A program made the translations under genes and the position numbers. The notes under the pieces are model-generated. The model had not been told where the DNA came from. It saw only the letters and a list, made by a program, of their open reading frames with translations, and did not search any database. A DNA stretch of 64,000 bases from an uncultured delta proteobacterium (GTDB lineage Bacteria > Desulfobacterota > Binatia > DP-6): positions 704,001 to 768,000 of the forward strand of contig CAWFFN010000005.1 of the NCBI GenBank assembly GCA_963815115.1, read 5' to 3'. This document shows positions 21,374 through 48,039 of the stretch, piece by piece. How positions within the stretch are numbered: the first letter of the stretch is position 1; the number at the start of each line of letters is the position of its first letter.

Positions 21374-21469
21374 CGATCCGAGACTCCGTCGCGAGCATGG
21401 CACGAAACCGGTCCACCGAACGCCTCACCCTCGCCTCCGCTTGCGACCCGAGACCAAGTCTCGGGTCGC
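21374..21469 (-). repeat. Nested-palindrome repeat, short internally deleted copy D
   Basis: GCGACCCGAGAC-CAA-GTCTCGGGTCGC hairpin; reverse complement matches both ends of copy B (gcggaggcgagggtgXggcgttcggtg and tcgtgccatgctcgc). Confidence 0.85.
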
Positions 21470-21473
21470 GCTG

Positions 21474-22049
21474 ATGCTGCACCTGGGCTCGAGCACCGGC
21501 TCGGCGTGGCTTGCCCGCGCCCTCGCGCATCTGGACGAGATCCTCGTCGACCATGCCCATTGCGAGAAGAAGGCGGCGTCCACGGCGCTCAGCCTGCTTT
21601 TTCGCTATCCCGAGCAGACGGTGCTGCTCGCGCCGCTCGCCCGCCTCGCCCGCGACGAGCTGGCGCACTTCGAGGAGGTGCTCGAGCGACTGAAGGCCCG
21701 GGGGCTGGGACTCCGGCGCCAGCGCCCGAGCCCGTATGCCGCCGAGCTTCTCGCGGGCATCCGCGCGGCCGAGCCCGGGCGTCTGGTCGACACCCTCCTC
21801 TGCATGGCGCTCATCGAAGCGCGGAGCTGCGAGCGCCTGCAGCTCCTGGCCGGGTCCGTCGAGGACGCGGACCTGGCCGCGCTCTTCGCCGGCCTGGTCG
21901 CCGGCGAAGCCCGCCACCACCGTGCCTACGTCGAGCTGGCCGAGCGCATCGCCCCGCAGGACGAGGTGTCGCGGCGGCTCGACGAGCTCGCCCGACACGA
22001 GGCGGCGGTGCTGGCTCGAGCCCCCGCCTGGCCCCGCCTGCACGCGTGA
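21474..22049 (+). CDS. miaE: tRNA-(ms2io6A)-hydroxylase MiaE
   Basis: DHAHCEKKAA, DELAHF, IEARSCER, EARHH diiron motifs. Confidence 0.93.
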   Translation: MLHLGSSTGSAWLARALAHLDEILVDHAHCEKKAASTALSLLFRYPEQTVLLAPLARLARDELAHFEEVLERLKARGLGLRRQRPSPYAAELLAGIRAAEPGRLVDTLLCMALIEARSCERLQLLAGSVEDADLAALFAGLVAGEARHHRAYVELAERIAPQDEVSRRLDELARHEAAVLARAPAWPRLHA

Positions 22050-22111
22050 GACGGCCGCTTCGCAGGCGGCGGTCATCCGCGCTATAGAATCGCAAACCGA
22101 AGGAGTTCCCG

Positions 22112-23953
22112 ATGAGTACCGCGTCGACACCCTCCCAGTCGCGTCCCGAGCCGCACGCGCTCGCGGGCAGCGCCATGACCTGCGCCGACATGATCGTGCA
22201 GGTGCTCGCCGACGAGGGGGTGGACACGCTCTTCGGCTACAGCGGGGGGGCCATCCTCCCGACCTACGACGCCATCTTCCGCTACAACGGGACCCACCCG
22301 CAGCGCGAGATGCGGCTCGTCGTCCCGGCGACGGAGCAGGGAGCCGGCTTCATGGCCGCCGGGTATGCGCGCTCGACCGGGCGGGTCGGCGTGTTCGTCG
22401 TCACGTCGGGCCCGGGCGCCACCAACTCGGTGACCCCGGTGCGCGACTGCCAGGCCGACTCGGTTCCGGTCGTGCTGATCACCGGGCAGGTGCCGCGCGC
22501 GGCGATGGGCACCGACGCGTTCCAGGAGGCGCCGGTCTTCAACATCATGGCCGCGTGCGCCAAGCACATCTTCCTGCTGACTGACGAGAGCAAGGTCGAG
22601 GCGACCATCCGGACCGCCTTCGACATCGCGCGGCACGGACGCCCCGGCCCGGTCGTCGTGGACATCCCGCGCGACGTCCAGCTGGCGCAGGGTGTCTTCC
22701 GTGGCAGCGGGCTGCTGCCGCTCCACGGCTACACCGAGCGCATCGATTCGCTCGAGCACGCGGTCATCTCGCCGGCCGACGCGCAGGCGTTCTTCGGCCT
22801 GCTGGCGGCCTCCGAGCGCCCCCTCCTCTACGTCGGCGGCGGCGTCATCAACAGCGACGCGGCAACCGAGCTGCGCGCCTTCGCGCAGCGCTTCGGCATC
22901 CCGGTGGTCACCACGCTGATGGGGATCGGCGCCGTCGACACCACAAGCGAGCTGTCGCTGCGCATGCTCGGCATGCACGGCATGGCCTTCGCCAACTACG
23001 CCGTCGAGGACTGCGACTTCCTCATCGCGATCGGCTCGCGCTTCGACGACCGCGTCGCCGGCAAGGTGAAGGAGTTCGCGCCCAACGCGCAGATCGCCCA
23101 CCTCGACATCGACGCCTCCGAGATCGGCAAGGTGAAGAACGTCGACTGGGCGCACGTCGCCGATGCCAAGCGCGGGATCAAGCAGCTGATGGACGCGGGG
23201 GCGGGGTTCAAGAAGAGCTTCGGACCGTGGCGCGCCCACGTCACCGAGCTGAAGCGCCGGCACGCGCTCAACTACAACCGCGGCTCGGACAAGATCCAGG
23301 CGGAGTACGTCCTGGAGGAGCTGAACAAGATCACGCGCGGCGAGGCCATCGTGTCCACCGGCGTCGGCCAGCACCAGATGTGGGCCGCGCAGTACCTCGA
23401 CTTCGTGGCGCCGCGCACCTGGCTCACCTCGGGAAGCATGGGCACCATGGGCTTCGGTCTACCGGCCGCCATCGGGGCCCAGCTCGCCCATCCGGGCGCG
23501 CTGGTGATCGATATCGACGGCGACGGGAGCATCCGCATGAACCTCGGCGAGCTCGAGACGCTCACGACATACGACATCCCCGTGAAGGTGCTGATTCTCA
23601 ACAACCTCGGCGACGGCATGGTGCGGCAGTGGCAGGACCTGTTCTACGCCAACCGCTACTCCGGCTCCGACAAGACCCTTCACAAGAAGGACTTCATCAA
23701 GGCCGCGGAAGCCGACGGCTTCGGGTTCGCGCAGCGCGCCACCGAGCCGGCACAGGTACCGGCCATGCTGGAGGCGTTCGTGCGCTTCCCGGGGCCGGCG
23801 TTCCTCGAGGTGATGGTCGATCCGGGCGCCCACGTCTACCCGATGGTGGGCCCGGGCATGGGCTACAAGGACATGATCACCGGCAAGTGGATCCCGGGCC
23901 GCGACAAGAGCTCCCCGAGCGGCGGAGTGGATCCGACCGGCGGAATGTTTTAG
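22112..23953 (+). CDS. ilvB: Acetolactate synthase large subunit
   Basis: FGYSGGAIL, TSGPGATN, GVGQHQMW, GTMGFGLPAAIGA, DGDGS ThDP motif. Confidence 0.95.
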   Translation: MSTASTPSQSRPEPHALAGSAMTCADMIVQVLADEGVDTLFGYSGGAILPTYDAIFRYNGTHPQREMRLVVPATEQGAGFMAAGYARSTGRVGVFVVTSGPGATNSVTPVRDCQADSVPVVLITGQVPRAAMGTDAFQEAPVFNIMAACAKHIFLLTDESKVEATIRTAFDIARHGRPGPVVVDIPRDVQLAQGVFRGSGLLPLHGYTERIDSLEHAVISPADAQAFFGLLAASERPLLYVGGGVINSDAATELRAFAQRFGIPVVTTLMGIGAVDTTSELSLRMLGMHGMAFANYAVEDCDFLIAIGSRFDDRVAGKVKEFAPNAQIAHLDIDASEIGKVKNVDWAHVADAKRGIKQLMDAGAGFKKSFGPWRAHVTELKRRHALNYNRGSDKIQAEYVLEELNKITRGEAIVSTGVGQHQMWAAQYLDFVAPRTWLTSGSMGTMGFGLPAAIGAQLAHPGALVIDIDGDGSIRMNLGELETLTTYDIPVKVLILNNLGDGMVRQWQDLFYANRYSGSDKTLHKKDFIKAAEADGFGFAQRATEPAQVPAMLEAFVRFPGPAFLEVMVDPGAHVYPMVGPGMGYKDMITGKWIPGRDKSSPSGGVDPTGGMF

Positions 23954-23955
23954 GG

Positions 23956-24197
23956 TCGACGCGAGACTCCGTCTCGGGTCGAGAGCGAGTGTGTGGCGTT
24001 CGGTGGCTCGGGCGAACGCCGTGCCGCGGCCGGCGAAGCCGGCGCGGCAATGCAAGGCACGCCCGAAACTTTCGCCTAGGGCGTCTTGCTCCGAATCGTA
24101 TGCCGCGGCGGCTTTGCCGCCCGCGGCACGACGTCCGCACCGTTCATCACGTTTGACTCTCGCTCTCCGGCTCGCCCCGAGACGAAGTCTCGGGGCG
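23956..24197 (+). repeat. Nested-palindrome repeat copy A (~240 bp)
   Basis: Terminal hairpins 23956-23982 and 24173-24197; inner inverted pair GTGCCGCGGCCGGCGAAGCCGGCGCGGCA (24021-24049) / 24101-24130. Confidence 0.92.
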
Positions 24198-24591
24198 CCA
24201 CCCGTGCTCCGTGCGCGATCAGAAACGTCTGGACGCGCGGGACCAGGTCGCCCTGCACGACGATGGTGTCGTCGTCGACGGTCGCACCCACCCCGAGCGC
24301 GCGCCGGATTGCGCGTGCGAGCGAGTCGAGCCGGCGCGCGTCGAGGCGGAGCCCGGCGACGACCGTGGCGGTCTTGCCGCCGTGGCCCTTGCGCTCCCGC
24401 CGCAGCGTGATCCTGGTGCTGCCGGCGAGATCCGGAACGTCGGAATTGGCGGCCGGGATCGCGGGTCCGGCCGCCGGCGGTGCGGCGCGCGGCGCGCTGC
24501 CGGTGACGCCCTGACGCGCGAGAAGCTCCGCCAGCGTAGCGAGCGGGATCGGAGGAGGCCTCTCGGGCGTCGGGGGGCGTCGCCGGCCCAT
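24076..24591 (-). CDS. SUI1/YciH translation initiation factor with repeat-derived C-terminal extension
   Basis: RRERKGHGGKTATVV...LGVGATV...IVVQGD SUI1 motifs; last ~40 codons lie inside repeat copy A. Confidence 0.88.
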   Translation of the reverse strand: MGRRRPPTPERPPPIPLATLAELLARQGVTGSAPRAAPPAAGPAIPAANSDVPDLAGSTRITLRRERKGHGGKTATVVAGLRLDARRLDSLARAIRRALGVGATVDDDTIVVQGDLVPRVQTFLIAHGARVAPRDFVSGRAGERESNVMNGADVVPRAAKPPRHTIRSKTP

Positions 24592-24635
24592 CGGGTATCC
24601 GCGGGATGCCGCCGCGCTGCGGCCGGGCGGGGTGC

Positions 24636-24848
24636 TCAGTTCCCCTCGTATTTGAAGCTCAGCTTCACCTTGGCGCGATAGGCGCGAATCTTGCCGTCCT
24701 CGATCTGGAGATCGAGCTGGGAGATCTCCGCGATCCGCAGATCGCGCAGCGTCTTCGACGCCTTCGTGACCGCCGCCGCGGCGGCCTTCTCCCACGACTC
24801 GCTGCTGGTCCCCACCAGCTCGATGATCTTGTAGACGCTCTCAGCCAT
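24636..24848 (-). CDS. Dodecin family flavin-binding protein
   Basis: SVYKIIELVGTSSESWEKAA...YRAKVKLSFKYE; GGAGG RBS. Confidence 0.93.
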   Translation of the reverse strand: MAESVYKIIELVGTSSESWEKAAAAAVTKASKTLRDLRIAEISQLDLQIEDGKIRAYRAKVKLSFKYEGN

Positions 24849-24986
24849 GGCTCGTCCTCCTCTGGTCGAAATCAAGGTCTACGCGATCTGCCGGACTTCC
24901 GGATATAGCCGTGAACGCGAGGGAAGGGGAAGGGGGCGTGCGCCGTGCGGCTGGCCCGTGCGGCGGCGTGGGGTAAAAGGACTCCC

Positions 24987-25664
24987 ATGTGTGGCCGCAT
25001 CGTGCGCACCAGTCCCGCCGAGGTGCTGGCGGCGGAGTTCGATGCCCGGCCCGCGCCCGGAATCGACCTGCACCCACGCTACAACCTGTGCCCGGGAGAC
25101 GACCTGGTCGTCGTGGTGCGCAAGGGCGAGGAACGCCGGCTCGGCACGGTACGCTGGGGGTTCGTCCCGCGCTTCGCCGCGGCTCCGGACGAGGCGCCGC
25201 GCTCGATCAACGCCCGCGCCGAGACCGTCGCCGTTCGACCGCCGTTCCGCGATGCCTTCCGGCGCCGCCGGTGCCTCGTCGCGGTGGACGGCTTCTACGA
25301 GTGGCGTCGGGAGGGACGCCGGCGGCAGCCGTATCTCGTTCGCCTGCGCTCCCACCGCCCGATGGCGCTTGCCGGCCTGTGGGAGCGCTGGCGCCCGCGA
25401 GAGGGCCAGCCGCTCCTGACCGGTCTCGTCATCACCTGTCCGGCGACGGGACGGCTGGCAGCGATCCACGACCGCATGCCGGTGATCCTCGCACCCGAAG
25501 GGGCGGCGCGCTGGCTCGATCCGACGATCGAGGACCCGCACGTCCTGCGGGGGCTTCTCGTGTCTGCGCCGGACGAGGAGCTCGAGATCCAGCCGGTGTC
25601 GCTGCTCGTCAACTCGCCGCGGAACGACTCGCCGGAATGCCTGACGCCGGAGCCCCCAGCATGA
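24987..25664 (+). CDS. SOS response-associated peptidase (SRAP/YedK/HMCES) abasic-site protein
   Basis: MCGR N-terminus, INARAET, GFYEW, IHDRMPVIL. Confidence 0.95.
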   Translation: MCGRIVRTSPAEVLAAEFDARPAPGIDLHPRYNLCPGDDLVVVVRKGEERRLGTVRWGFVPRFAAAPDEAPRSINARAETVAVRPPFRDAFRRRRCLVAVDGFYEWRREGRRRQPYLVRLRSHRPMALAGLWERWRPREGQPLLTGLVITCPATGRLAAIHDRMPVILAPEGAARWLDPTIEDPHVLRGLLVSAPDEELEIQPVSLLVNSPRNDSPECLTPEPPA

Positions 25665-26769
25665 AGTCGACCACCGCGGCCCACAGGGCCTCGAAGCGTG
25701 CCGTCGTGCAGCCCGAGCCGGTGGTGATCCAGTCGATGTGCGGCGGATCGTGCGCCGCATCGCCGAAGTGCCCGACCACGTCGAGGTGATCGGCCTGCAC
25801 CGCGGCGATCACCTCGCCCCACGGCTGCGAGCGCGTCGGCACCATGCCGTCGTTGGCGGCCGCGTCGGGGAGCGTGCCGAACGCGGTGCGCAGGACGTCG
25901 GCCTGCGCGTCATCCAGGGGCGGCATCCGGTCCGGCGCGAGGCGCACGAGCCGGTGGAGGGCCGCGTACACCGCGAGGGTCGCCTGCGCAGCGGGGTCGA
26001 GTCCGACCGCCAGGGTCGATGCGATGCCGGGCGGGTGCCCGAGGGTCACCACCGACCCCGCGCGCACACCCGCTCGCAAGTGCGTGCAGGCGTTGAAGAC
26101 CTCCATGGCTTCCGGGGTGAGCTGGACGAGCAGGGACTGGTCGCCCCCGACCTCGCTGAAGAAGGCCGCCAGGGCGCGGCGGCGCTCGGGTGAGAAGTCG
26201 GCCAGGAGCTGGGCGAAGATCTCGTCGAGGAGCGCGCTGTTCAACCCGAACAGGCCATCCATGCGCGCGACGACGGCCCCGAGCTGGACGAGGGCCGAGA
26301 GCGGGAGATGGCCGAACCGGAGCACGGAGATGGTGGCGAGCGACAGCACCTGCAGCAGCTTCTGCCCGAGCACGCTGGTGAAGAAGGCCGCCAGGGGCGT
26401 GCCGTGGTGGGGGGTGGCGATGGTGACGGCGGTGCGCACCTGCGCGGCGTAGCGCTCGACGTCGAGGTCGGTCGGCAGCGTCACCCCCGGGGTGAGCAGC
26501 AGCCGGACATCCAGGCCGCCGCTCGAGTGGCCGATCAAGTGCACCGGGCCCTCGTCGTCCTGGAGCGTCTCCGCCATCGCCGACAGAACGCGCTCGGCCC
26601 GGCGCGTCAGCGAAGCGGTGGGGCGGGTCCTGACCACCTCGACGTGCACGCCGAGGCCGCGGCGAGCGAACGCGCCCACGAGATACTCGCGCACGTGCGC
26701 GAAGTACTTGAGGTCTCCCAGGTTGGCGAAGCCGAAGAAACCCGGCACCAGATACGCGTGATGAACCAC
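25609..26769 (-). CDS. Lipase-like alpha/beta hydrolase
   Basis: LVPGFFGF oxyanion loop, GHSSGG nucleophile, ATPHHGTP, NDGMVP, ADHLDVVG. Confidence 0.88.
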   Translation of the reverse strand: MVHHAYLVPGFFGFANLGDLKYFAHVREYLVGAFARRGLGVHVEVVRTRPTASLTRRAERVLSAMAETLQDDEGPVHLIGHSSGGLDVRLLLTPGVTLPTDLDVERYAAQVRTAVTIATPHHGTPLAAFFTSVLGQKLLQVLSLATISVLRFGHLPLSALVQLGAVVARMDGLFGLNSALLDEIFAQLLADFSPERRRALAAFFSEVGGDQSLLVQLTPEAMEVFNACTHLRAGVRAGSVVTLGHPPGIASTLAVGLDPAAQATLAVYAALHRLVRLAPDRMPPLDDAQADVLRTAFGTLPDAAANDGMVPTRSQPWGEVIAAVQADHLDVVGHFGDAAHDPPHIDWITTGSGCTTARFEALWAAVVDFMLGAPASGIPASRSAAS

Positions 26770-26907
26770 GGGTCCCGAGCTAGCACGTCCGCCACGTGCC
26801 GCCGAGCGGACGCCGGGTGCAGTGGACGACGAGTGGTGGGCCGCGGCGGAGATTGCCGCCGGAGGTACCCTTGCCACCTGGTTTCCGGGTATGCTCCTCT
26901 GCCGCGA

Positions 26908-28281: not shown

Positions 28282-28339
28282 CCGGGTCATGGACGACATG
28301 GTTCGCGTCGTCACCGGCGTGACCGCCTGAGGCCGCGAC

Positions 28340-29002: not shown

Positions 29003-29070
29003 CGGCCCTCGGGGATTCAACAGCGTGTCCACCGTGTTACGGTGACGCGCCGGAGCGAGGAGGCGACGTC

Positions 29071-30789
29071 ATGCCCGAGAACTTCTTTCACCGTGACATG
29101 CAGCTCTTCATCGACCACCGGTTCGACTGGGAGCGCTATCTCCGGCTTCGCCGTGGCACGCCCCTCAACGTGGCCGACGAGGTCGCGACCTACAAGGACG
29201 TCCTCCGCACCACGGGTGAGATCTGCGAGGCGATCGAGGAAGGTGCGCGCGGGCACTGGCACGAGGAGGTGAAGCTCGACCACGGAACGGTCGTCGTGCC
29301 GCCGCACATCGCCGCCGGGTACGAGAAGCTGCGTGGCGCCGGGCTCCTCTGCCTCACCATGGATCCGCAGTACGGCGGCTATGGCCTGCCCGCGCTCGTC
29401 AACACGACCTACCTCGAGATGGTGGCGCGTGCCGACGCGAGCCTGATGACCATCATCGGCCTGCAAGCGGGCGTCGCGCTCGACATCGAGAAGTACGGCA
29501 GCGACGAGCTGAAGAAGCGCTACCTGCCCGGCTTCGTCGCCGGCGAGCTCCAGGGGTCGATGGACCTGACGGAGCCGCAGGCGGGGTCCGATCTCGGCGG
29601 CATCACGACCCGCGTCACGAAGGAAGGCGATCGCTACTTCATCGACGGCGAGAAGATCTACATCACCAATGGCGGCTCGCACATCCATCTCGTTCTTGCC
29701 CGCGATGCCGCGACCTACGACCAGTCGAAGAACACGACCAACGGCCTCAACCTGATGCTCTGTCCCGTCACGCTGCCCGACGGGCGCCGGAACGGGATGC
29801 GCGTGGCGCGGGTCGAGTCGAAGCTCGGCATCCATGGGTCGCCCACCTGCGTCATCGAGTTCGACCACGCCGAGGCCTACCTCCTCGCCACACCGGGGCA
29901 GGGGTTCCGGGCCATGCTCGACCTCATGAACAATGCTCGCCTCGGCGTCGCCGCCCAGGCGATCGGGATCGCGGAGGCCGCCTACGCGGCGGCGCGCGAG
30001 TACGCCGCCCAGCGGGTGCAGTTCGGAGGCCCGATCCTGCAGCAGCCCCTGGTCAAGTCGATGCTCACGCTGATGCGGATCAACATCGAGGCGGCGCGCG
30101 CGCTGCTCTACCGCACCTCGGGGTTGATCGACGTCACCGAGGCGATCCGCACCCACCTCGAGTCGGGCCGCGTCGCGAACGGTCCCGAAGCGATCAAGCT
30201 GCAGGAGGAGCTCGAGCGCAACACGCAGCTGATCCGGTTCTTCACGCCACTGTGCAAGTACTTCGCGACCGAGATCAGCAACCACGTGACCCGTCAGGGC
30301 ATCCAGGTCCACGGCGGGATCGGCTACATGGCCGAGACGCCCGCGGGGCACTACCATTCCGACTCGATCATCACCACCATCTACGAAGGGACCTCGGAGA
30401 TCCAGGCGAGCTTCGCGCTGAAGGAGATGGCGAAGGGCGCGCTCTTCGCGACCCTGGAGACGATCGACGGCGAGCTCGCGGCGGTGAAGGGGCATCCCGA
30501 CCTCGCGCAGCTGGTCAGTGACGGCGTGAAGACGATCCGGGACTCGGTGACGCACCTGATGGGCGATCCGCAGTACGCCCTGCTGAACGCGAAGCGCGTC
30601 GCCGAGATGGTGATCGACGTGGTGGTGAGCGCCGAGCTGCTCTGCCAGGCGGACCTGGCGGAGGGGCGGGCCGAGCTGGCGCGGAGCTTCATCCACCGTC
30701 ACATCCCCCGCGTGCGGGTGAACGCCGAGCGCATCAGCAGCGGCGATGCCTCGCGCATCGCGCGCTACGACAAGATCCTGGGACTCTAG
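29071..30789 (+). CDS. Acyl-CoA dehydrogenase (long form)
   Basis: MDLTEPQAGSDL, KLGIHGSPT, RVQFG, QVHGGIGY, IYEGTSEIQ. Confidence 0.93.
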   Translation: MPENFFHRDMQLFIDHRFDWERYLRLRRGTPLNVADEVATYKDVLRTTGEICEAIEEGARGHWHEEVKLDHGTVVVPPHIAAGYEKLRGAGLLCLTMDPQYGGYGLPALVNTTYLEMVARADASLMTIIGLQAGVALDIEKYGSDELKKRYLPGFVAGELQGSMDLTEPQAGSDLGGITTRVTKEGDRYFIDGEKIYITNGGSHIHLVLARDAATYDQSKNTTNGLNLMLCPVTLPDGRRNGMRVARVESKLGIHGSPTCVIEFDHAEAYLLATPGQGFRAMLDLMNNARLGVAAQAIGIAEAAYAAAREYAAQRVQFGGPILQQPLVKSMLTLMRINIEAARALLYRTSGLIDVTEAIRTHLESGRVANGPEAIKLQEELERNTQLIRFFTPLCKYFATEISNHVTRQGIQVHGGIGYMAETPAGHYHSDSIITTIYEGTSEIQASFALKEMAKGALFATLETIDGELAAVKGHPDLAQLVSDGVKTIRDSVTHLMGDPQYALLNAKRVAEMVIDVVVSAELLCQADLAEGRAELARSFIHRHIPRVRVNAERISSGDASRIARYDKILGL

Positions 30790-30793
30790 TCGG

Positions 30794-31079
30794 TCGACCC
30801 GAGACTGCGTCTCGGGTCGAGAGCGGAGGCGAGGGTGTGGCGTTCGGTGCATCGAGCGAGCGCCGTGCCGCGGCCGGCGAAGCCGGCGCGGCAACACGTG
30901 GCACGCGCGAGGCTCGCGCTCAGTGCGTCCCAGGCCACCTGCGCGCACGGCGCTCGGCGACAGGCATGCGCTCCGAACCGTCTGCCGCGGCGGCTTCGCC
31001 GGCCGCGGCACGGCACCCGCACTGTTCATCTCGTGCCATGCTCGCCCTCCGTCTCGACCCGAGACGAAGTCTCGGGTCG
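30794..31079 (+). repeat. Nested-palindrome repeat copy B (longest, ~286 bp)
   Basis: TCGACCCGAGAC-TGC-GTCTCGGGTCGA (30794-30820); 32-bp inverted pair 30862-30893/30983-31014; CGACCCGAGAC-GAA-GTCTCGGGTCG (31055-31079). Confidence 0.93.
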
Positions 31080-31583
31080 TTTCAGGTCGCCGAGCACATC
31101 CTTGGCGTGGCTCGCCGGGTTCACGGTGCCGTACACCTGTCGCACCGTGCCGTCCGGACCGACCACGAACGAGACCCGGTGGGCGACGGGCGCTTCGGCG
31201 GTGTCGGCAGCGCCGACCGCCAGGGCGAGCTTGTGGTCCTGATCGGAGAGCAGGCGGAACGGAAACCCCTCCGCCTTCACGAACGCGGCATTGTCGGCAG
31301 GCGCGTCGAACGAGACGCCGAGGATCGTCACCCCCCGCTCCTCGAATGCTCCGGCCTGGTCGCGAAAGCTTCGCCCCTCCGCCGTGCAGCCCGGGGTCAT
31401 CGCCTTCGGAAAGAACCACAGCACGTACGTCTTGCCGGCGAGGTCGTGCGACGACACGCTGGCGCCGGTCTGGTCGGTGAGCGTCCAGGAGGGGAAGGGT
31501 TCACCGGTCTTGAGCAGTGCAGCGGCCAGGACAGCGGGACCGTGGGTCTGAAGCAAGACGAGGATCAGCAGCAGGGTACGCAT
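31026..31583 (-). CDS. bcp: Peroxiredoxin (BCP/PrxQ) with signal peptide; stop codon supplied by repeat B
   Basis: WFFPKAMTPGCTAE peroxidatic motif, ILGVSFD, FPFRLLSD. Confidence 0.9.
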   Translation of the reverse strand: MRTLLLILVLLQTHGPAVLAAALLKTGEPFPSWTLTDQTGASVSSHDLAGKTYVLWFFPKAMTPGCTAEGRSFRDQAGAFEERGVTILGVSFDAPADNAAFVKAEGFPFRLLSDQDHKLALAVGAADTAEAPVAHRVSFVVGPDGTVRQVYGTVNPASHAKDVLGDLKRPETSSRVETEGEHGTR

Positions 31584-31630
31584 GGCCCGATTGTTACGTT
31601 GCACGGGCCATGGTGAAAAGACCCTGCGGG

Positions 31631-32872: not shown

Positions 32873-32924
32873 GCTGGCCTGCAGGGATAGCAAGGGTCGA
32901 GGCGTGGAGCTAGAGTCGCCCGCC

Positions 32925-36335: not shown

Positions 36336-36442
36336 CGTCGCTCCATTCTGCTGGCCTGGCCCGGGCGCTACAACCGCGCATCCGGGCCGCGCCAGGGTGG
36401 GCGGCGCTTGTCGCCATGCATCGGCGCGTTGTAGGCCGGCGC

Positions 36443-37663: not shown

Positions 37664-37835
37664 TCATGCGAGCGCTGGCGCTCGACGCTTCGCCGCGGCT
37701 CGTCTGCGCGCTCTTCTTGCTCTTCCTCATGGCGTGAGCTCCTCGCCGAGCGAGGCTGGAGCGTCTCACGCTTGCTGTCAATGGAGGCCCGTCACCATGT
37801 TCCCTCGGGGTCGCCACATCGGCTAGCCTGCGGCG

Positions 37836-38732: not shown

Positions 38733-38754
38733 TCGCTCTCGCACGCGCGGCCGG

Positions 38755-40167: not shown

Positions 40168-40287
40168 GACGTGTCCTGGCGTTGTTCCGCGGGGGAGGCT
40201 CTGCACTATAGGAGTGGTCGCACCCGCACGACAAGGAGGAGGCATGCCCGCATCGCCGTCCGCACTGCCACGGCTGCCGAGGCCGCG

Positions 40288-41097: not shown

Positions 41098-41495
41098 CGG
41101 GGGAGGGCGGGTCGGCGCGCGCCCGACTCGGCCAAGGCGTGCCCGCGCCCGAACTGAGAGAGCAGAACCAGCCCGCCCGCGACGACGACGGCGACGCCCA
41201 CGCCCCGGGTGAGCGCGCTGCCCAGCGCAGCGGGCGCGGCGAGCGTTGCCAGCCCGGCGAGGAGCGTCACGACGCTCGCCGGAAGCAACCACCAGGCGGT
41301 CTCCCGCACCCGCAGGGCGCCCACCAGGTTGATCCCGCCGGCGACGACGGCGAGCGCGGCCAGGGTGTAGAGCAGGACCAGGCCCGTCACGGACGCGACC
41401 GTCTCGGGCAGAGCGACGAGGGCGATTCCCGCGCAGAGCAGCAGCGCGCCGCGCAGGCGGCGGCCGTCATCCCGGCCATACCGAGGAGTCGTCAT
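41094..41495 (-). CDS. Small membrane protein (DUF308/HdeD-like)
   Basis: Four hydrophobic segments in a repeated helical-hairpin pattern. Confidence 0.6.
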   Translation of the reverse strand: MTTPRYGRDDGRRLRGALLLCAGIALVALPETVASVTGLVLLYTLAALAVVAGGINLVGALRVRETAWWLLPASVVTLLAGLATLAAPAALGSALTRGVGVAVVVAGGLVLLSQFGRGHALAESGARRPALPR

Positions 41496-41510
41496 GCTGC
41501 TTCCTGGAGG

Positions 41511-41526
41511 AGCAAGCGCCGTGCCG
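41511..41526 (-). promoter_or_regulatory. Putative sigma54 -24/-12 promoter
   Basis: Minus strand CGGCACGGCGCTTGCT vs consensus TGGCACGNNNNTTGCW. Confidence 0.55.
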
Positions 41527-41648
41527 ACCGACGTGGCGCGGGCCCAGGCGCCCGAATTCACGACGCTGGACGGCGCGTCCGAGGCCCGCCGTCTCCCTTT
41601 TTCCCATGCGGGCCCCGACTCCGTGCAAAATCGACACGACCGTGGCGC

Positions 41649-42977
41649 TCAGAGCGGTCCGCGGACCTCGGTCTCGAGCGGCCCCGCGTCGCGGCGGGCG
41701 TCGAGCGGCAGGTAGCTGCGCTCGCCGTGTCCGGCGTAGATCTGCTTCGGCCGGGCGATGCGCTGCTCCTCGTCGAGCACCATCTCCGCCCACTGCGCCA
41801 TCCAGCCCGCCGTGCGCGGGATGGCGAACAGCACCGGGAACATCTCCACGGGGAAGCCCATGGCGTCGTAGATGATGCCCGAATAGAAGTCGACGTTCGG
41901 GTAGAGACGTCGCTTGACGAAGTAGTCGTCCTCGAGCGCGATGCGCTCGAGCTCCAGAGCGACGTCGATGAGCGGGCTCTTTCCGGTCACCTCGAAGACC
42001 TGGTACGCCGCATCCTTGATGATCTTGGCGCGCGGGTCGTAGTTCTTGTAGACCCGGTGCCCGAAGCCCATCAGGCGCCGCTCGCCGGCCTTCACCTGCT
42101 TGATGAGCTCGGGGATGTGTCGCGTCGAGCCGATCTCCCGGAGCATGTGCACCACTTCCTCGTTGGCGCCGCCGTGACGGGGTCCGGAGAGCGCCGCGGC
42201 AGCGGCCGCGACGACCGAGTAGGGATCGGCGAGCGCGCTGCCCACCACCCGCGCCGCGGTGCTGGAGCAGTTCTGCTCGTGATCGGCGTGCAGGATGAAG
42301 AGCAGATCGAGCGCCTGCTCGAGCACCGGGTTGGGCCTGTACTTGAGCTCGGTCATCTTGAAGAGCATCGAGAGAAAGTTGCCGGTGTAGGAGAGGTCGT
42401 TGTCGGGATAGTTGTAGGGCAGCCCGCGACTGTTGCGGTAGGCGAACGCGGCGATGGTCGGCATCTTGCCGATCAGGCGGCGCGTCTGTACGCGGCGCGA
42501 CTCGAGGTCCATGACGTTCTTCGCGTCGGGATAGAACGTGGACAGGGCGCCGACCGTTCCCACCAGCATGCCCATCGGGTGCGCGTCGTACCGGAAGCCC
42601 TGCATGAAGCGCTTCAGGTTCTCGTGCACCATCGTGTGCATCGTGATGTTGTGCTGCCACATGGCGAGGTGGCTCGTCGTCGGCAGCTCGCCCTTGACGA
42701 TGAGATACGCGGTCTCGAGATACGTGCTCTTCTCCGCGAGCTCCTCGATGGGGTAGCCGCGGTAGCGCAGGATGCCGCGGTCGCCGTCGATGTAGGTGAC
42801 CTTGCTGCGGCACGACGCGGTGTTCATGAACGCCGGGTCGTAGCTCACCAGACCGGGGTCGTCGGGCCCCAGCTTGATGCGGGAGAGCTCCGTGGCGCGG
42901 ACCGCGCCGTCCTCGATCGGGAGCGTGTACTCCTTGCCGGTCCGGTTGTCCTTCACCGTCAGCGTGGACTCTGCCAT
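41649..42977 (-). CDS. gltA: Citrate synthase
   Basis: GILRYRGY, HADHEQNCS, GPRHGGA, GFGHRVY, PNVDFYSG. Confidence 0.97.
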   Translation of the reverse strand: MAESTLTVKDNRTGKEYTLPIEDGAVRATELSRIKLGPDDPGLVSYDPAFMNTASCRSKVTYIDGDRGILRYRGYPIEELAEKSTYLETAYLIVKGELPTTSHLAMWQHNITMHTMVHENLKRFMQGFRYDAHPMGMLVGTVGALSTFYPDAKNVMDLESRRVQTRRLIGKMPTIAAFAYRNSRGLPYNYPDNDLSYTGNFLSMLFKMTELKYRPNPVLEQALDLLFILHADHEQNCSSTAARVVGSALADPYSVVAAAAAALSGPRHGGANEEVVHMLREIGSTRHIPELIKQVKAGERRLMGFGHRVYKNYDPRAKIIKDAAYQVFEVTGKSPLIDVALELERIALEDDYFVKRRLYPNVDFYSGIIYDAMGFPVEMFPVLFAIPRTAGWMAQWAEMVLDEEQRIARPKQIYAGHGERSYLPLDARRDAGPLETEVRGPL

Positions 42978-43153
42978 GGCCCACTTCTACCCTCGCGAAG
43001 GGGCATGGTGAAGCGGCACCGGGACCGCGCCGAACCCCCTCGAACGGGGCCCGTCGCCAAAGCGTCGCCCGCCCGACGCCGAGGATTCGCGGCGCGATCA
43101 CCTGCGGGTAACGGAGGGTGGCTACCCTCGGATGGCGAAGGAGGAGGTCGTGT

Positions 43154-43909
43154 ATGCGGACCCCGAACGCCCTGCCGATATTGCCTGGCGGCGACGTCGG
43201 GCTGGTCGTGAGCCTGGCCCGGACCGAGGAGGACGTGCGCGCGGCGCAACGCCTGCGCTGGCAGGTTTTCGTCGAGGAGCTGGGAGCGCGTGTCGAGAGC
43301 GAAGCGGGCGGTCTCGACGCGGACCGCTTCGATGCCCACTGCGATCATCTGCTGGTCCGCGAGCGGGACACGGGCGACGTGGTGGGCACCTACCGCATGC
43401 TCCCGCCGGAGCGCGTCGTACGCGCCGGCGGGCTCTACGCGGAGACCGAGTTCCACCTGACCCGCCTGCTCGGCATCGATCGGCTGGTCGAGGTGGGACG
43501 CGCCTGCGTGCGGCACGACTACCGGACGGGTTCCGTGATCTCGCTCCTCTGGACGGGCCTGCTGCGATACCTCCTCGACGGCGGACACGAGTTCGTGATC
43601 GGGTGCGCCAGCATCGGGCTCGGCGACGACATGGCCCGCGCCGCCGCGCTCTGCCGGCGACTCGTCCTCGAGCACGCGAGCCCGCCCGAGTGGCGGGTCT
43701 TCCCCCGCCGGCCCCTGCCCTGCGAGCCCGCGCCCGCGGTGCACGAGGCGCCGCTCCCGGCGCTCTTGAAGGGCTACCTGCGCCTGGGCGCGTACGTCTG
43801 CGGCGAGCCGGCATGGGATCCGGCCTTCGGCACCGCGGACGTTCTCCTGCTGCTTCCCCTGGAACGGCTGAGTCATCGCCATGCCGCCCGGCTCCTGCGC
43901 GCCGCCTGA
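43154..43909 (+). CDS. olsB: GNAT N-acyltransferase, ornithine-lipid OlsB-like
   Basis: AQRLRWQVFVEE, DRFDAHCDHL, VEVGRACV, LLKGYLRLGA, PAWDPAFGTAD. Confidence 0.88.
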   Translation: MRTPNALPILPGGDVGLVVSLARTEEDVRAAQRLRWQVFVEELGARVESEAGGLDADRFDAHCDHLLVRERDTGDVVGTYRMLPPERVVRAGGLYAETEFHLTRLLGIDRLVEVGRACVRHDYRTGSVISLLWTGLLRYLLDGGHEFVIGCASIGLGDDMARAAALCRRLVLEHASPPEWRVFPRRPLPCEPAPAVHEAPLPALLKGYLRLGAYVCGEPAWDPAFGTADVLLLLPLERLSHRHAARLLRAA

Positions 43910-43916
43910 GACGCGC

Positions 43917-44978
43917 GTGGAGACGCCTCTGCCGGTCCGCTGCTTCCGCGCCGCGGTGTTTCTCGGGCAGGTGTGTCTGGTGTGGCTCGGTGCGGTACTC
44001 GTCGCGCCGCGGCTCTCGACGGCGAGGCGTGCGCGACTGAATGCACGGCTGGCCGCCCAGACGCTGGGTATCCTCCAGGTGCGCGTGCGCCGGCTCGGCG
44101 CCATGCCGTACGCCGACGGCCCGCTGCTGCTCGTCGCCAACCACGTCTCGTGGCTGGACGTCTACGCGCTCAACGCCACGGTCGGCGGGCCGCGCTCGGT
44201 CGCGAAGTCGGAGGTCGCGCGCTGGCCGATGGCCGGCGGCATCGCGCGCGGCTTCGGCACGTTTTTCCACGTGCGCGGCAGCTACCGCGATGCGGCCTGG
44301 GTGAAGGATGCGGTTGCCGTGGCCCTGCGGCGTGGCGAGCCCGTGGTCGTCTTCCCCGAGGGCACCACGAGCGAAGGCGGCCGGGTCGGCCGCTTCCATG
44401 CTGCATTCTTCCAGGCGGCCGTGGACGCCGGCGTCCCGGTGCAGCCGGTCGCGATCCACTATCCCACGCCGGACGGCGCTCCCGACCCGGCGGCCGCGTT
44501 CGTCGGCGAGATGACGTTCGTCGAGTCGCTCGCGCGCGTGCTGCGCCGGCGGCGGCTCGATACCCGCCTCACCTTCGGTCCGGTGCTGCCGAGCGCGGGA
44601 CGCACGCGGCGCGAGCTGGCGGCGCTCAGCCATGCCTTCATCGCGCTGGCGCTCGCCTGCCGGGCGGCAGTCGAAACCGCGCACACCGGCCATCCGCGCG
44701 CGTCTGGCGCGCGCCGCCTAGACATGACCCTCGACAGCCCGGATCGCATCGCATATGAGCCTGCGCGCCGCGGTGCGCCTCCGCGGCGGGAGGGTGAACG
44801 ATGCGACGGGTCGCTGGCGTCGTGCTGCTGGGTGCCATGCTGGCCCTCGGGGTCGCCTGCGCCGCGCCGTCGGCGGTGCCGGCAGCAGCGCCTCCGGCGC
44901 GCAGCCCGCTCGCGGCAGTTCGCCAGGGAATGCTACCCGCGGACGTGCGCAAGATCGCCGGGGCACCCACGGCGGTGA
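43917..44978 (+). CDS. Lysophospholipid acyltransferase, OlsA-like (true end probably ~44721; possible frameshift)
   Basis: NHVSWLD, AKSEV, FPEGTT motifs; ORF runs ~100 aa past the domain and overlaps the next gene. Confidence 0.82.
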   Translation: METPLPVRCFRAAVFLGQVCLVWLGAVLVAPRLSTARRARLNARLAAQTLGILQVRVRRLGAMPYADGPLLLVANHVSWLDVYALNATVGGPRSVAKSEVARWPMAGGIARGFGTFFHVRGSYRDAAWVKDAVAVALRRGEPVVVFPEGTTSEGGRVGRFHAAFFQAAVDAGVPVQPVAIHYPTPDGAPDPAAAFVGEMTFVESLARVLRRRRLDTRLTFGPVLPSAGRTRRELAALSHAFIALALACRAAVETAHTGHPRASGARRLDMTLDSPDRIAYEPARRGAPPRREGERCDGSLASCCWVPCWPSGSPAPRRRRCRQQRLRRAARSRQFARECYPRTCARSPGHPRR

Positions 44979-45154
44979 AGCCGTACATCACCGGCAAGGC
45001 CCTCGTTCCATGGTACTCCGGGCCCGATCGCACCCGGACCGCGTACTACTACAAGGGACAGGGCCGGGTGATCTTCTCGGGCGACGGCGCCAGTGCGGAC
45101 AGCCGGGTGCTCGAGGTGCAGTACGATCCGGGCGACCCGGGCTCGCCAAGGTAG
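44801..45154 (+). CDS. Hypothetical lipoprotein (SmpA/BamE-like fold possible)
   Basis: GGAGG RBS, lipobox GVAC, VRQGM...VRKIAGAP pattern. Confidence 0.75.
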   Translation: MRRVAGVVLLGAMLALGVACAAPSAVPAAAPPARSPLAAVRQGMLPADVRKIAGAPTAVKPYITGKALVPWYSGPDRTRTAYYYKGQGRVIFSGDGASADSRVLEVQYDPGDPGSPR

Positions 45155-45174
45155 TCTCGCCGGTAGTCTCGCCA

Positions 45175-45200
45175 CCATCCGCTCTCCCGGGGCGTTCGTA
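45175..45200 (+). promoter_or_regulatory. Putative SigK-type ECF promoter
   Basis: CCATCC-N16-CGTA; second copy GCATCC-N16-CGTA at 46482. Confidence 0.6.
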
Positions 45201-45255
45201 CCCTCTACGACGACCAGGCGCGGCTCCCGAGCCGTCGCCCCGAGGAGGGACCGCG

Positions 45256-45666
45256 ATGTCGGACCGGATGCACGGACTCGAGAGCGTCGAGGCGCTCTTC
45301 GCCCCCGAGCAGCTTCTCCCGACGCAGTACGGCCCCGCTCGTCGCAACACCCGGGCGTGCGGCGAGCGGGCGCTGATGCTGGCGGTGCTCGAGGATGCGA
45401 TCCGTTGCCTCGAGGACGGTCCCCGGCGCGACGCGCGCGCCGCCCGCGAGACCGAGGCGTGGATCCGCTCCGACGACGAGGAGTGGCCCTTCTCGTTCCT
45501 GAATCTGTGCGCCAACCTGGAGATCGACGCCGGCCAGCTGCGCCGCGCACTGCTGCAGCGCGTGGCCGGTCGACGAACCCCCGTGCGCGAGCGCGGCAGG
45601 TCGAGCCGGGCGCCCGGATGGCCGACTTGCCCCGACCTGCCGCGCAGGGCTAGCTGCGTCGGGTGA
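45256..45666 (+). CDS. Small hypothetical protein, paralogue of 21048..21368
   Basis: GAGGAGG RBS; GERALMLAVLEDAIRCL...WIRSDDEEWPFSFLNLCANLEID. Confidence 0.8.
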   Translation: MSDRMHGLESVEALFAPEQLLPTQYGPARRNTRACGERALMLAVLEDAIRCLEDGPRRDARAARETEAWIRSDDEEWPFSFLNLCANLEIDAGQLRRALLQRVAGRRTPVRERGRSSRAPGWPTCPDLPRRASCVG

Positions 45667-46475
45667 TCCGGTCCCGCTGGCGTTCCCTCCTCATGCTCAC
45701 AGCGCTCGCCGCGGTCGTGGCGAGCTCGACATCCCTCGCGGCCGGCGCCCCGAGGCTGCTGGCCCTCACCGAGGACGGTGGCCTTCTGGTGCTGCGCGCG
45801 GACCATCCCACCGAGGTCCAGCGTCTCCAGCCCCAGGGTCTCAGCGGACGTCTTCTCGGCATCGACATGCGGCCCGCCGACGGGAAGCTCTACGGCATCA
45901 CCAGTACCAACGACGTGTACCGAATCGACCCCGCCACCGGTGCCGCGACGCAGGTCAGCTCGCTCACCGTGCCGTTCGACGGTGACGTTCGCTCGGGCGT
46001 CGACTTCAACCCGCAGGCGGACCGCCTCCGGCTGGTGAGCCGCGACGGCCAGAACCTGCGCGTCAACGTCCTCCTCGGCGCCACCGCCGTCGACGGCGCG
46101 CTGGCCTTCCGTGCGGGAGACCCCAACGCGGGCAAGCGACCCCGGGTGACGGCCGCGGCGTACACGCACAACGTCGCGGATGCGCCCGATACGAAGCTCT
46201 TCGACATCGACTCCGACCTCGACATCCTGGTGCTGCAGGACCCGCCGAACGACGGGCAGCTCGCCACCGTCGGCCCACTCGGGATCGACTTCGGGCCGCT
46301 CGGCGGCTTCGACATCATCACCGACGCGGCCGGGCACGACGAGGCATGGGCGGCGTCGGGATCCACGCTCTATGGCGTCGATCTCACCAGCGGGGCGGCA
46401 CGCCCCAGCGGGACCATCGGGGATGGCCGCGCCAGCATCATCGGCCTGGCCGCCGCAGGTCCCGCGGCGCCCTGA
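45663..46475 (+). CDS. DUF4394 domain secreted protein
   Basis: Signal peptide; GIDMRPADGKLY, DFNPQADRLR, AAAYT, QDPPNDGQL. Confidence 0.88.
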   Translation: MIRSRWRSLLMLTALAAVVASSTSLAAGAPRLLALTEDGGLLVLRADHPTEVQRLQPQGLSGRLLGIDMRPADGKLYGITSTNDVYRIDPATGAATQVSSLTVPFDGDVRSGVDFNPQADRLRLVSRDGQNLRVNVLLGATAVDGALAFRAGDPNAGKRPRVTAAAYTHNVADAPDTKLFDIDSDLDILVLQDPPNDGQLATVGPLGIDFGPLGGFDIITDAAGHDEAWAASGSTLYGVDLTSGAARPSGTIGDGRASIIGLAAAGPAAP

Positions 46476-46481
46476 TGGCCT

Positions 46482-46507
46482 GCATCCGTCCTCGACGCCC
46501 GAACGTA
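46482..46507 (+). promoter_or_regulatory. Putative SigK-type autoregulatory ECF promoter
   Basis: GCATCC-N16-CGTA upstream of the sigma gene. Confidence 0.6.
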
Positions 46508-46561
46508 GTACAGGTAGCGCTCGTGCGTTGTCTCTTTTGCCTGTGCTAGGGGGAACGGCGT

Positions 46562-47143
46562 CTGCACGGGACTTCTGAAGACGCTGCCGATCGCCCCCCC
46601 CAGGCGGATGAGCGATTGCTGAGCGCCGCGGCCGGGGATCCGTCCGCTTTGGGACTGCTCTATGATCGATATGGAAAACTCGTCTACGGCTTGGCACTTG
46701 CGATCCTCGGCTCCCGCCAGGAGGCAGAGGATCTCACCCAGGAGATCTTCCTGACCGTGTATGAGCACACCGGCTATGACCCGGGCCGGGGCTCGGTGAG
46801 TGCCTTTCTCACCACGATGACGCGCTCGCGGGCGATCGACCGCCTGCGGCGACGAGGGCGCTCGGTGCGGCTGCTGCGAACGTGGCACGAGGCCACCCCG
46901 CCGGCGCGAGGGCCCGTCACCCCCCTGGAGCGCGTCTCGATGCAGCAGTGCTCCGAGCGCGTCCGTGCCGCGCTGGAGGCGCTCCCCGAGGCGGAGCGGC
47001 AGGTACTCGAGCTCGCCTACTTCAGGGGTTTCAGTCAGGCCGAGATCGCCGCCGACCTCGACACTCCGCTCGGAACCGTCAAGAGCCGCTCCCGGCGTGC
47101 CCTGATGGCCCTCAAGCAGGCCCTCGGCGACCTGATGGGATGA
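46562..47143 (+). CDS. ECF sigma factor, SigK-like (start CTG 46562 or TTG 46616)
   Basis: LYDRYG, EAEDLTQEIF, YDPGRGS, LAYFRGFSQAEIA, PLGTVKSR. Confidence 0.93.
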   Translation: MHGTSEDAADRPPQADERLLSAAAGDPSALGLLYDRYGKLVYGLALAILGSRQEAEDLTQEIFLTVYEHTGYDPGRGSVSAFLTTMTRSRAIDRLRRRGRSVRLLRTWHEATPPARGPVTPLERVSMQQCSERVRAALEALPEAERQVLELAYFRGFSQAEIAADLDTPLGTVKSRSRRALMALKQALGDLMG

Positions 47144-47147
47144 CGGG

Positions 47148-47867
47148 ATGAGCGAGCCTCTCGACGCCTCCGAGGACCGGCTGGTCCAGTACGTGCTCGG
47201 CGAGCTGCGCCGTGACGAGGCGCAGGCGCTCGAACGCCGGCTGGGCGAGGACGACGCGCTGGCTGCGGAGGTGTGGCGGCTGAGGCAGGTTCTCGATCTC
47301 ATGCCGTATGCGTCGATCGCGGAGCCGCCGCCCGCGCTGCGCGACCGCATCCTGACCACCGCCGCCGCGCGCCAGGCACGGACGGTCAAGCCGCGCGCGC
47401 CGCGCCGCATCGTGTGGAGCCGCTTCGCGGCCGCGGCGGCGGCCACCCTGGCTCTGGCGTTCGGCTTCGACGCCTACCGCACGCGACAAGAGCTGGCGCT
47501 GCAGCGCGAGGTCACCGCGACGCTGCAGGAGCCGAACGTGATGCGCTCCTTCGCGATGGCCGGAACCGGCACGGCGGGCGGGGCGGTCGGCCGCGTCGCT
47601 CTCGATCTCGACGCCAAGCGGGGCGCGGTGGTGTTGAAGGGCATGCCCGTCCTGCCGGCGGGAGAGGTCTACCGGCTGTGGGCGAAGGTGGCGGACAAGA
47701 GCGTTCCCTGCGGCCAGTTCACGGCCAGCGACGACGGTGCCGTCGTGGCGCAGTTCGTGGTGCCGGTGGAGTCGTACACCGCCCCGATCGCGAAGCTCTT
47801 CGTCACCGTCGAGCCGTCGGCCCCGTCGGACGTCCCCACCGGGCCGACCGTCATGGTCAGCGTCTAA
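47148..47867 (+). CDS. Anti-sigma factor, RskA-like
   Basis: YVLGEL, PPPALRDRIL, single TM, YRLW, VTVEP...PTGP. Confidence 0.9.
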   Translation: MSEPLDASEDRLVQYVLGELRRDEAQALERRLGEDDALAAEVWRLRQVLDLMPYASIAEPPPALRDRILTTAAARQARTVKPRAPRRIVWSRFAAAAAATLALAFGFDAYRTRQELALQREVTATLQEPNVMRSFAMAGTGTAGGAVGRVALDLDAKRGAVVLKGMPVLPAGEVYRLWAKVADKSVPCGQFTASDDGAVVAQFVVPVESYTAPIAKLFVTVEPSAPSDVPTGPTVMVSV

Positions 47868-47870
47868 GCG

Positions 47871-48039
47871 CGACCCGAGACGCAGTCTCGGGTCGAGAGC
47901 GCAGGCGAGCGTGTGGCGCGCGGTGGATCGTGCGAGCGCCCTGCCGCGCCGGCTTCGCCGGCCGCGGCACGACATCCGCACCGTTCCCCAAGCCTCACCC
48001 TCGCTCTCCCTCCCGACCCGAGACGCAGTCTCGGGTCGG
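47871..48039 (+). repeat. Nested-palindrome repeat copy C (~170 bp, one inner hairpin)
   Basis: CGACCCGAGAC-GCA-GTCTCGGGTCG at both ends; inner TGCCGCGCCGGCTTCGCCGGCCGCGGCAC (47942-47970). Confidence 0.92.

Follow-up and report, generated by a model that had tools for sequence, protein, structure and literature searches.

A CTAG-targeted palindromic element behind stop codons in a Binatia genome, probably a non-autonomous offshoot of an IS1182-family insertion sequence

Introduction

Bacterial MITEs (miniature inverted-repeat transposable elements) that target the dinucleotide TA include RUP of Streptococcus pneumoniae, which is linked to IS630-Spn1, and the Correia/NEMIS elements of Neisseria. 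Among insertion sequences (ISs) of the IS1182 family, the accessible part of one study gives a 4-bp duplication for ISPse1 (PMC3281130), and the accessible part of another describes MITEPye1 of Paracoccus yeei, with 4-bp repeats, terminal inverted repeats (TIRs) like those of the IS1182-family ISPye18 and a long stem-loop fold (PMC11578231).

Here we describe a palindromic element that occurs four times in a 64-kb window (G000:C5:704001-768000, the whole stretch of DNA analysed) of a Binatia genome, G000 (6.89 Mb in 12 contigs, 70% GC). We establish its copy number, ends, target and empty sites, and find an IS with matching ends and flanks. Our reading, to which we give a probability of about 0.8, is that the palindromes are copies of a MITE of ~286 bp, a non-autonomous derivative of an IS1182-family IS. 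New here are the ends of the element, its target duplication and its partner IS; a limited literature search returned no published description of the element family, or of MITEs in Binatia.

Results

A family of 86 elements with a nested palindromic architecture

Near each of its ends the element carries X, a 25-nt hairpin of the form CGACCCGAGAC-NNN-GTCTCGGGTCG, of which the window holds seven matches at three or fewer mismatches, compared with 0.00 expected from 100 dinucleotide-preserving shuffles. A preliminary description of the window had reported four copies, all of which we recover within 1-2 nt and call A to D in their order along the window, and had given them the nested order X-a-Y-core-Y'-a'-X'. 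This architecture holds in an oriented alignment of 20 full-length copies from G000, in which the centre is asymmetric and thereby gives the element an orientation; both orientations are present, also relative to the flanking genes. The pentamer GAGMG together with X stands inverted at the two ends and thus constitutes the TIRs, with the loops TCC, TTC or TGC in the left hairpin and GGA, GAA or GCA in the right one. Mean pairwise identity among the 20 copies is 0.82 (range 0.74-0.95), and column conservation is 0.97 in X, 0.97 in Y, 0.84-0.87 in the arms and 0.79 in the centre. At 286 bp, the full length is too short to hold a transposase gene.

We made an element profile from these 20 copies and searched G000 with nhmmer, which yielded 198 raw matches, 106 after removal of overlaps and finally 86 merged elements, all on five large contigs and equivalent to one per 80 kb; the core hairpin pattern (CCCGAGAC-N3-5-GTCTCGGG) matched 120 times. 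By class, 34 elements are full length (at least 255 bp, mode 286), 21 retain both ends around an internal deletion (99-250 bp), 29 are one-ended and two are odd. Another 18 X-like hairpins with up to four substitutions belong to no element: about 14 are genuine solo X, and four resemble chance matches. The hundreds of copies per genome that had been extrapolated from the window thus shrink to 86 elements and about 14 solo X, the density of the window being ~5-fold above the genome average. We rejected the possibility that X hairpins 1-4 kb apart in G000 delimit one long element, as these are separate short copies (e.g. C7:145546 and C7:149239).

Furthermore, in a family-level comparison of 25 genomes including G000, in which the relatives are draft metagenome-assembled genomes (MAGs), the element is present in 22 of the 24 others (23 of 25 with G000). 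In 16 genomes from 10 other families of the class, we obtained three weak matches only (E 1.6e-4 to 8.7e-4). A scan of public contigs for GAGMG plus X, with records near the source genome excluded, returned four stretches, all of them short forms and with no transposase within 3 kb.

The ends adjoin a duplicated CTAG

Outer flanks were aligned for 139 oriented termini, which remained from 152 X at three or fewer mismatches after exclusion of 13 whose loops are atypical. Directly outside X, the consensus is C-T-A-G-G-A-G-(A/C)-G: the true termini lie 5 nt outside X, at GAGMG, and adjoin CTAG. A TAG is found exactly 5 nt outside X (starting 8 nt before it) at 46 of the 139 termini and a CTAG at the same outer position at 37, in a genome that holds only 1850 CTAG in all. 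The old junctions of G000 are often decayed.

A related genome, G020, carries a young burst of the element with 51 termini, compared with none in a reversed-pattern control, and about 20 copies share an equal length of 309 bp counting both CTAGs. In the junctions that we fetched from this genome, CTAG stands at all 13 left and all 3 right ends, with unrelated DNA immediately outside, in the form N/CTAG/GAGCG-X...X'-CGCTC/CTAG/N. The unpaired G020 termini are ordinary copies with a diverged second end or lie at a contig end, and no autonomous copy of the element is present in the G020 assembly.

We then compared filled with empty sites in four genomes of the same genus (G001-G004), where the flanking genes are 72-88% identical to G000 at the DNA level. 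As several MAFFT junction alignments were partly misaligned, those junctions were read by eye from the sequence. The empty sites that had been anticipated in relatives exist for copies A, B and D. At the site of copy D, two convergent genes of G003 overlap on one TCTAGTAC and there is no element, while in G000 the element stands between TCTAa-gcg and gttctct-CTAGTAG, that is, two CTAG-type copies compared with a single one; because CTAG has been duplicated, both convergent genes keep a stop. The TAA stop to the left of copy D is the decayed left member of this duplication. In G001, G003 and G004, the site of copy A reads (T)GCTAG, with the ATG of the following gene 11-12 nt further on. The site of copy B is empty in G001, G002 and G004, with an intergenic gap of 60-61 nt, and copy C sits at a synteny break with respect to G002-G004.

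The reverse comparison began with 25 loci in relatives, one of which was dropped for too short a flank; for 11 of the 24 remaining elements, the G000 sequence is contiguous across an empty site. The empty site for locus L044 has a single CTAG at the junction, and the filled/empty comparison at L052 also fits a target duplication. At L041, GTAG...GTAG surrounds the element where the empty G000 site has one TGA stop, which fits a 4-bp duplication better than one of 2 bp; otherwise, as CTAG is itself palindromic, a 4-bp duplication of CTAG and a 2-bp duplication of TA would look alike by sequence. Collectively, the many copies, the TIRs, the duplicated target and the empty orthologous sites support the reading of the element as non-autonomous mobile DNA. 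Of the label REPIN/MITE-like given in the preliminary description, the MITE half is borne out by these features, and the REPIN half is not, the target being duplicated and none of 30 Y1 loci being associated with the element (see below).

In addition, a lone degenerate X-like hairpin lies between two stops at the copy D site of G004 (L021, G004:C241:3600-3810), either as a solo-X remnant of an older insertion or as an independent arrival at the same CTAG.

Stop codons as insertion sites

We examined the position of the termini relative to genes, called as open reading frames (ORFs) of at least 100 codons with GC3 of at least 0.85 and GC1 above GC2, shadow frames being excluded. The stops of the 4619 genes called in G000 are TGA in 72%, TAG in 26% and TAA in 2% of cases. 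A gene stop lies within 20 nt outside X at 67 of the 139 termini, and the 72 others lack one under a gene-call rule that misses some genes. TAG makes up 51 of the 67 stops, compared with the 26% among called genes, and 29 have the 5-nt spacer. Genome-wide, 401 of the 1850 CTAG are gene stops, 22 of them common to convergent genes. A strict CTAG target combined with the loss of intragenic insertions is thus sufficient to place the element at stop codons.

An IS1182-family insertion sequence with matching ends

A genome-wide search for inverted pairs of the element's outer 14-mer led to a 1480-bp IS with four copies in G000 (C2:36653-38132, C4:46748-48227, C5:640264-641743 and C5:1146238-1147717), which are identical at 1478-1480 of 1480 positions. 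CTAG flanks the IS on both sides at three independent sites, and its ends read (CTAG)GAGCCTGACCCAAGACTCCG and (CTAG)GAGCGTGACCCGAGACGCCG. After CTAG, its TIRs agree with the majority consensus of the 139 element termini at 16 of 20 positions on the left and 17 of 20 on the right, or 18 of 20 on the right when the A/C position is counted. A 414-aa ORF in the IS scores 316.7 bits against the IS1182 equivalog NF033551 of NCBIfam (cut-off 270), contains the Pfam domains DUF772, DDE_Tnp_1_6 and DDE_Tnp_1, and encodes an IS1182-family transposase. On the small contigs C2 and C4 the IS is surrounded by identical DNA, oppositely oriented (C2:36593-38192 and C4:46688-48287); these contigs are probably one locus assembled twice.

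The IS copy nearest to the window lies 62 kb upstream. Within the window there is none (best tblastn E-value 0.56), nor any match to Y1, IS110, DDE_3 or DDE_Tnp_1, in agreement with the earlier statement that no transposase is present there.

Another relative, G010, has a related CTAG-flanked IS of 1431 bp whose transposase is 70-80% identical, but in two pieces. The transposase-proximal end of this IS is simple, like the end of the G000 IS. At its opposite end, distal to the start of the transposase, stands a complete X-a-Y arm (profile 1-104, E 4e-19), which occupies 105 of the 145 bp between the transposase stop and CTAG, with no further terminus beyond it. The element's arm is thus an IS end from this lineage. 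The preliminary description had held that a match to a known IS end would refute its interpretation; in one sense there is such a match, as the ends correspond to IS1182-family TIRs, and it gives the element a parent while its mobility stands.

Other candidate partners were examined and rejected. There are 11 matches to IS110 in G000. One of them (L019) has a one-armed element ~1 kb away, yet the missing half of that element is not found across the IS, and we see no link with IS110. IS5-type DDE_Tnp_1_2 was found in none of five genomes, and none of the other 13 DDE_Tnp_1 matches in G000 is near any X. Separately, we noted an IS110-family element of 1572-1579 bp in three copies that are 99.9-100% identical (L012, L013 and L014; C9 at ~342, 353 and 429 kb) and a second one in two copies (L015 and L016), so that G000 houses several active IS families.

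The same junctions could also arise if the MITE were moved by an IS630/Tc1-mariner-type transposase and only the TA inside CTAG were duplicated. The DDE_3 elements of the clade do show the junction c-TA-G...C-TA-g at five of the six loci with definable TIRs, CTAG-GAG...CTC-CTAG can equally be read as TA followed by an element beginning with G, and two old copies have CTAG on the left and CTAC on the right. However, none of the six TIRs resembles GAGMGCGACCC, none of 13 DDE_3 loci has an X hairpin and DDE_3 is present in only 6 of the 25 genomes, while it is the IS1182-type IS that matches the TIR sequence and its G010 relative that holds the whole arm. We regard mobilisation by an IS630-type enzyme as quite improbable.

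IS630-family elements themselves insert at CTAG with TA duplication (c-TA-GTGCACCGCCGTCG...), so that their junctions read exactly like those of the IS1182-type IS and the MITE (L065:1236-2377 and L067:1236-2377, at ~395 kb and ~534 kb of G000:C9; also L056, L063 and L057-L059). Two unrelated transposon families thus compete for the rare CTAG sites.

X is maintained as a local hairpin

A full copy (copy C) folds as one long fold-back, with -209 kcal/mol for RNA (z -10.7) and -129.5 kcal/mol for DNA (z -12.4). Over 156 X, we counted 26 Watson-Crick double changes of at least nine kinds, compared with a mean of 1.8 and a maximum of 7 in 2000 rounds of arm shuffling, beside 52 uncompensated mismatches and 13 wobbles. 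Among the 45 elements that retain X on both sides, the change is compensated inside its own hairpin at 15 of 28 variant positions and by the long-range partner at 4 of 28. For Y, the 30 double changes against 5.7 expected constitute weak evidence, as 25 of them are one variant. X is therefore maintained by compensated changes as a local palindrome and not through long-range pairing, and the earlier remark on compensation in the hairpins is supported. The pair on which that remark was based, CGCCCC/GGGGCG, exists, although in the right hairpin of the copy at 23957-24197 and not in the first-listed copy. Palindrome-templated correction is a mechanism that operates during replication, and it is one possible cause of the upkeep of X, together with selection in transposing lineages and a role at the RNA level.

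Kept hairpin pairing of this kind, local rather than long-range, is also what a REPIN-like element would display if a RAYT-type Y1/HUH transposase moved it by recognising X on single-stranded DNA. A Y1/HUH gene is present in G000 and multi-copy in the element-rich genomes G013, G008, G020, G024 and G015, and a (C/G)TAG tag beside a palindrome resembles the GTAG-tagged repetitive extragenic palindromes (REPs). Against this, neither X nor any other portion of the element lies within ~1.5 kb of any of the 30 Y1 loci, which come from G000 and 13 relatives; the element-rich genomes G014, G018, G023 and G021 have no Y1 match and G005 a weak one only (E 8.5e-4). Moreover, the target is duplicated at the junctions and single at empty sites, and the ends match a DDE-type IS. 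The RAYT/IS200-IS605-type or IS110 gene flanked by X, for which the preliminary description had proposed to look, was not found among these loci and the IS110 matches, and we consider a RAYT-driven origin very improbable.

The Y1/HUH transposase-like gene of G000 encodes 220 aa with the motifs HVHLL and YHAR and is single in this genome (C7:784004-784663 = L011:1252-1914, minus strand). In relatives (loci L074-L102), G013 has at least 11 full-length copies that are 59-67% identical to the G000 protein, and there are 26 matches in G008, 12 in G020 and 13 in G024, a copy number that is unusual for a RAYT-type gene.

The strength of the fold, the compensated stem changes, the conservation of X and Y (0.97 each, compared with 0.79-0.87 elsewhere) and the location 5 nt past stop codons, in many cases where two genes converge, might alternatively reflect a structure that is primarily selected by the host and does not move, such as a stop-adjacent bidirectional terminator or a stabiliser of mRNA 3' ends. 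Several observations are at odds with this: presence/absence polymorphism with duplicated CTAG, the burst of identical copies in G020, both orientations relative to flanking genes, and the ends and whole arm held in common with an IS. In addition, no T-tract adjoins X on either side in the flank and full-copy alignments, and Rfam at gathering thresholds gave no match across the 64-kb window. We find such an origin hardly credible, while a function of this kind may be a secondary, exapted role of the element.

Short forms and solo hairpins

Because X and Y are palindromic, their left and right copies are also direct repeats. The junction of copy D falls inside Y/Y', and a solo X bracketed by TAG...CTA fits a deletion between X and X'. 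The modular deletion proposed in the preliminary description accounts for copy D and some others, but not in general, since the 21 internally deleted copies of G000 have many different junctions.

G020 also contains a perfect 40-nt solo unit, CTAG-GAGCG-X-CGCTC-CTAG (L120:192-231 = G020:C161:55691-55730), which is 94-100% matched to the ends of young G020 copies. Instead of having arisen by deletion, it might represent the smallest form of the element that is able to move.

The four copies of the window

The coordinates of the four copies and the adjoining gene ends are given in Table 1. In order along the window, copy A has a terminal GCGAG, an X that is truncated and degenerate (from 21374), an a-type arm, the intact X and a terminal CGCTG. 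The gene for MiaE, a tRNA hydroxylase, begins with its ATG at 21474, 5 nt past the X hairpin; the 11-12-nt spacer of the relatives has been lost, so that a very stable hairpin now adjoins the start region, which may affect translation initiation or coupling. The centre of copy C between Y and Y' is asymmetric. Its flanks sit on different contigs in G002, G003 and G004 and are separated by 1.15 kb of other DNA in G001; copy C marks a synteny breakpoint, and recombination between element copies is possibly behind the break.

Table 1. Element copies, their hairpins and the adjoining stop codons, in window coordinates
Feature	Position	Strand	Remark
CTAG, left junction of copy A	21365..21368	+	its TAG ends ORF 21048..21368
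Copy A, short form of ~105 bp	21369..21473	-	nhmmer C5:725395-725468, profile 1-74
X of copy A	21444-21468		pattern match
TAG stop of TPP-enzyme gene 22112..23953	23951..23953	+	3 nt ahead of copy B
Copy B, 241 bp, centre shortened	23957..24197	+	nhmmer profile 1-285 in 240 nt
X of copy B	23957-23981		pattern match, 1 mismatch
Y and Y' of copy B	24021-24049, 24101-24129
X' of copy B	24173-24197		pattern match, compensated CGCCCC/GGGGCG stem
CTAG, left junction of copy C	30786..30789	+	its TAG is the stop codon of acyl-CoA dehydrogenase gene 29071..30789
Copy C, full length	30790..31084	+	nhmmer profile 1-286
Terminal pentamers of copy C	30790-30794, 31080-31084
X and X' of copy C	30795-30819, 31055-31079		pattern match
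Y and Y' of copy C	30865-30893, 30983-31011
TAA stop of RskA-like anti-sigma gene 47148..47867	47865..47867	+
Copy D, centre deleted, X and X' kept	47868..48045	+	nhmmer profile 1-78 + 189-286
X and X' of copy D	47871-47895, 48014-48038		pattern match
Single hybrid Y of copy D	47942-47970
CTAG, right junction of copy D	48046..48049		minus-strand TAG ends the 1135-aa gene 48046..51453 (Alginate_exp domain)

Discussion

We propose that each arm of the element (GAGMG-X-a-Y, ~105 bp) derives from the terminal region of an IS, and that the element amounts to two inverted arms around a short non-coding centre. The DDE transposase of an IS1182-family IS would move it in trans, presumably by recognising the outer ~20 bp (GAGMG-YGACCCRAGAC), inserting at CTAG and duplicating that sequence. 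The duplication would comprise 4 bp as in other IS1182 members, the central TA being indistinguishable by sequence. Since CTAG is rare in a genome of 70% GC and more than one in five CTAG there supplies a TAG stop, surviving insertions end up 5 nt behind stop codons. The duplicated CTAG would preserve the stop of the upstream gene, and both stops where convergent genes shared one CTAG. Slippage or recombination between the palindromic X and Y would yield the shorter forms and solo-X units, with X kept by selection, on transposition-competent lineages or on RNA hairpins, or by palindrome-templated correction.

Several observations weigh against this explanation. The transposase is found in 6 of the 25 family genomes and the element in 23, and no transposase match came from G020, the genome with the youngest copies of the element, an absence that is limited by the draft state of the MAGs, where the assembly of repeated ISs frequently fails. 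The ends of the G000 IS lack the 3' arm of X. The elements of G000 are old (identity 0.82) and its IS copies young, and the G000 IS may not be moving the G000 elements at present. At the junctions, a left CTAG faces a right CTAC at two old copies, which fits a TA duplication better; a clean second CTAG is missing at several old junctions (copies A, B and C, and L055). Copy A adjoins CTAG in G000, yet both its second CTAG and the spacer are missing, and at L055 the convergent stops are TAG at the filled junctions but TGA-cggt-TCA in G000. Finally, a DDE transposase that binds double-stranded DNA gives no reason for the compensated changes that keep the hairpin in X.

In a further scenario, the palindromic ends would be no mere accident, each TIR having been doubled into a hairpin. 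The 35-bp GAGMG-X-CKCTC between two CTAGs would then hold both transposase sites and might move by itself, and X hairpins that had come to lie 5 nt behind TAG stops might be retained by the host as bidirectional terminators without a U-tract or as 3'-end stabilisers; retention by the host would explain why pairing is kept locally, through compensated changes, in copies that no longer move. We regard this scenario as doubtful, although conceivable.

With a derivation from an IS1182-family IS, a repeat family that occupies many of the gaps behind genes in Binatia-type genomes would acquire both name and mechanism, and would be tied to a concrete, testable transposase. With its strict CTAG target, a transposon is placed exactly at stop codons while the genes remain unbroken. 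In annotated genomes, such hairpins are best masked as MITEs, and labels such as terminator, small RNA or REP need evidence. The local upkeep of the hairpin is the one feature that could hide biology, either an exapted terminator or structure-specific recognition.

Comparison with known systems

The element resembles REPs and REPINs in its GC-rich hairpins in inverted pairs, its position behind genes and its compensated stem changes; it differs in having no RAYT association (0 of 30 loci), a target duplication and ends in common with a DDE IS. With RUP and Correia/NEMIS it shares a short, palindromic and non-autonomous build, TA at the junctions and a frequent location beside genes, with which those elements are often co-transcribed. 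In contrast to them, its TIRs match an IS of the IS1182 type and not of the IS630 type, and its target is the whole CTAG.

The partner IS is like IS1182 members such as ISPse1, as far as the accessible part of that description extends, in its single transposase ORF, short TIRs and flanking repeat, which is 4 bp in ISPse1 (PMC3281130) and CTAG here, where 4 and 2 bp look alike by sequence. It differs in that the IS of one lineage, that of G010, ends in a structured arm of 105 bp.

The closest described relative in kind is MITEPye1 which, in the accessible part of its description, is likewise small, non-coding and intergenic, with IS1182-type TIRs, a predicted long stem-loop, 4-bp direct repeats (here CTAG, for which 4 and 2 bp look alike by sequence) and a proposed mobilisation in trans (PMC11578231). 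The same part of that source gives MITEPye1 1-3 copies per chromosome and TIRs of 18 bp, compared with the 86 copies of the present element (PMC11578231). Judged against that partial account, the sequences are unrelated, and the element described here stands apart in that each TIR extends into X, a hairpin with a perfect 11-bp stem, followed by the second palindrome Y, as well as in its solo-hairpin derivatives and its strict CTAG target at stop codons.

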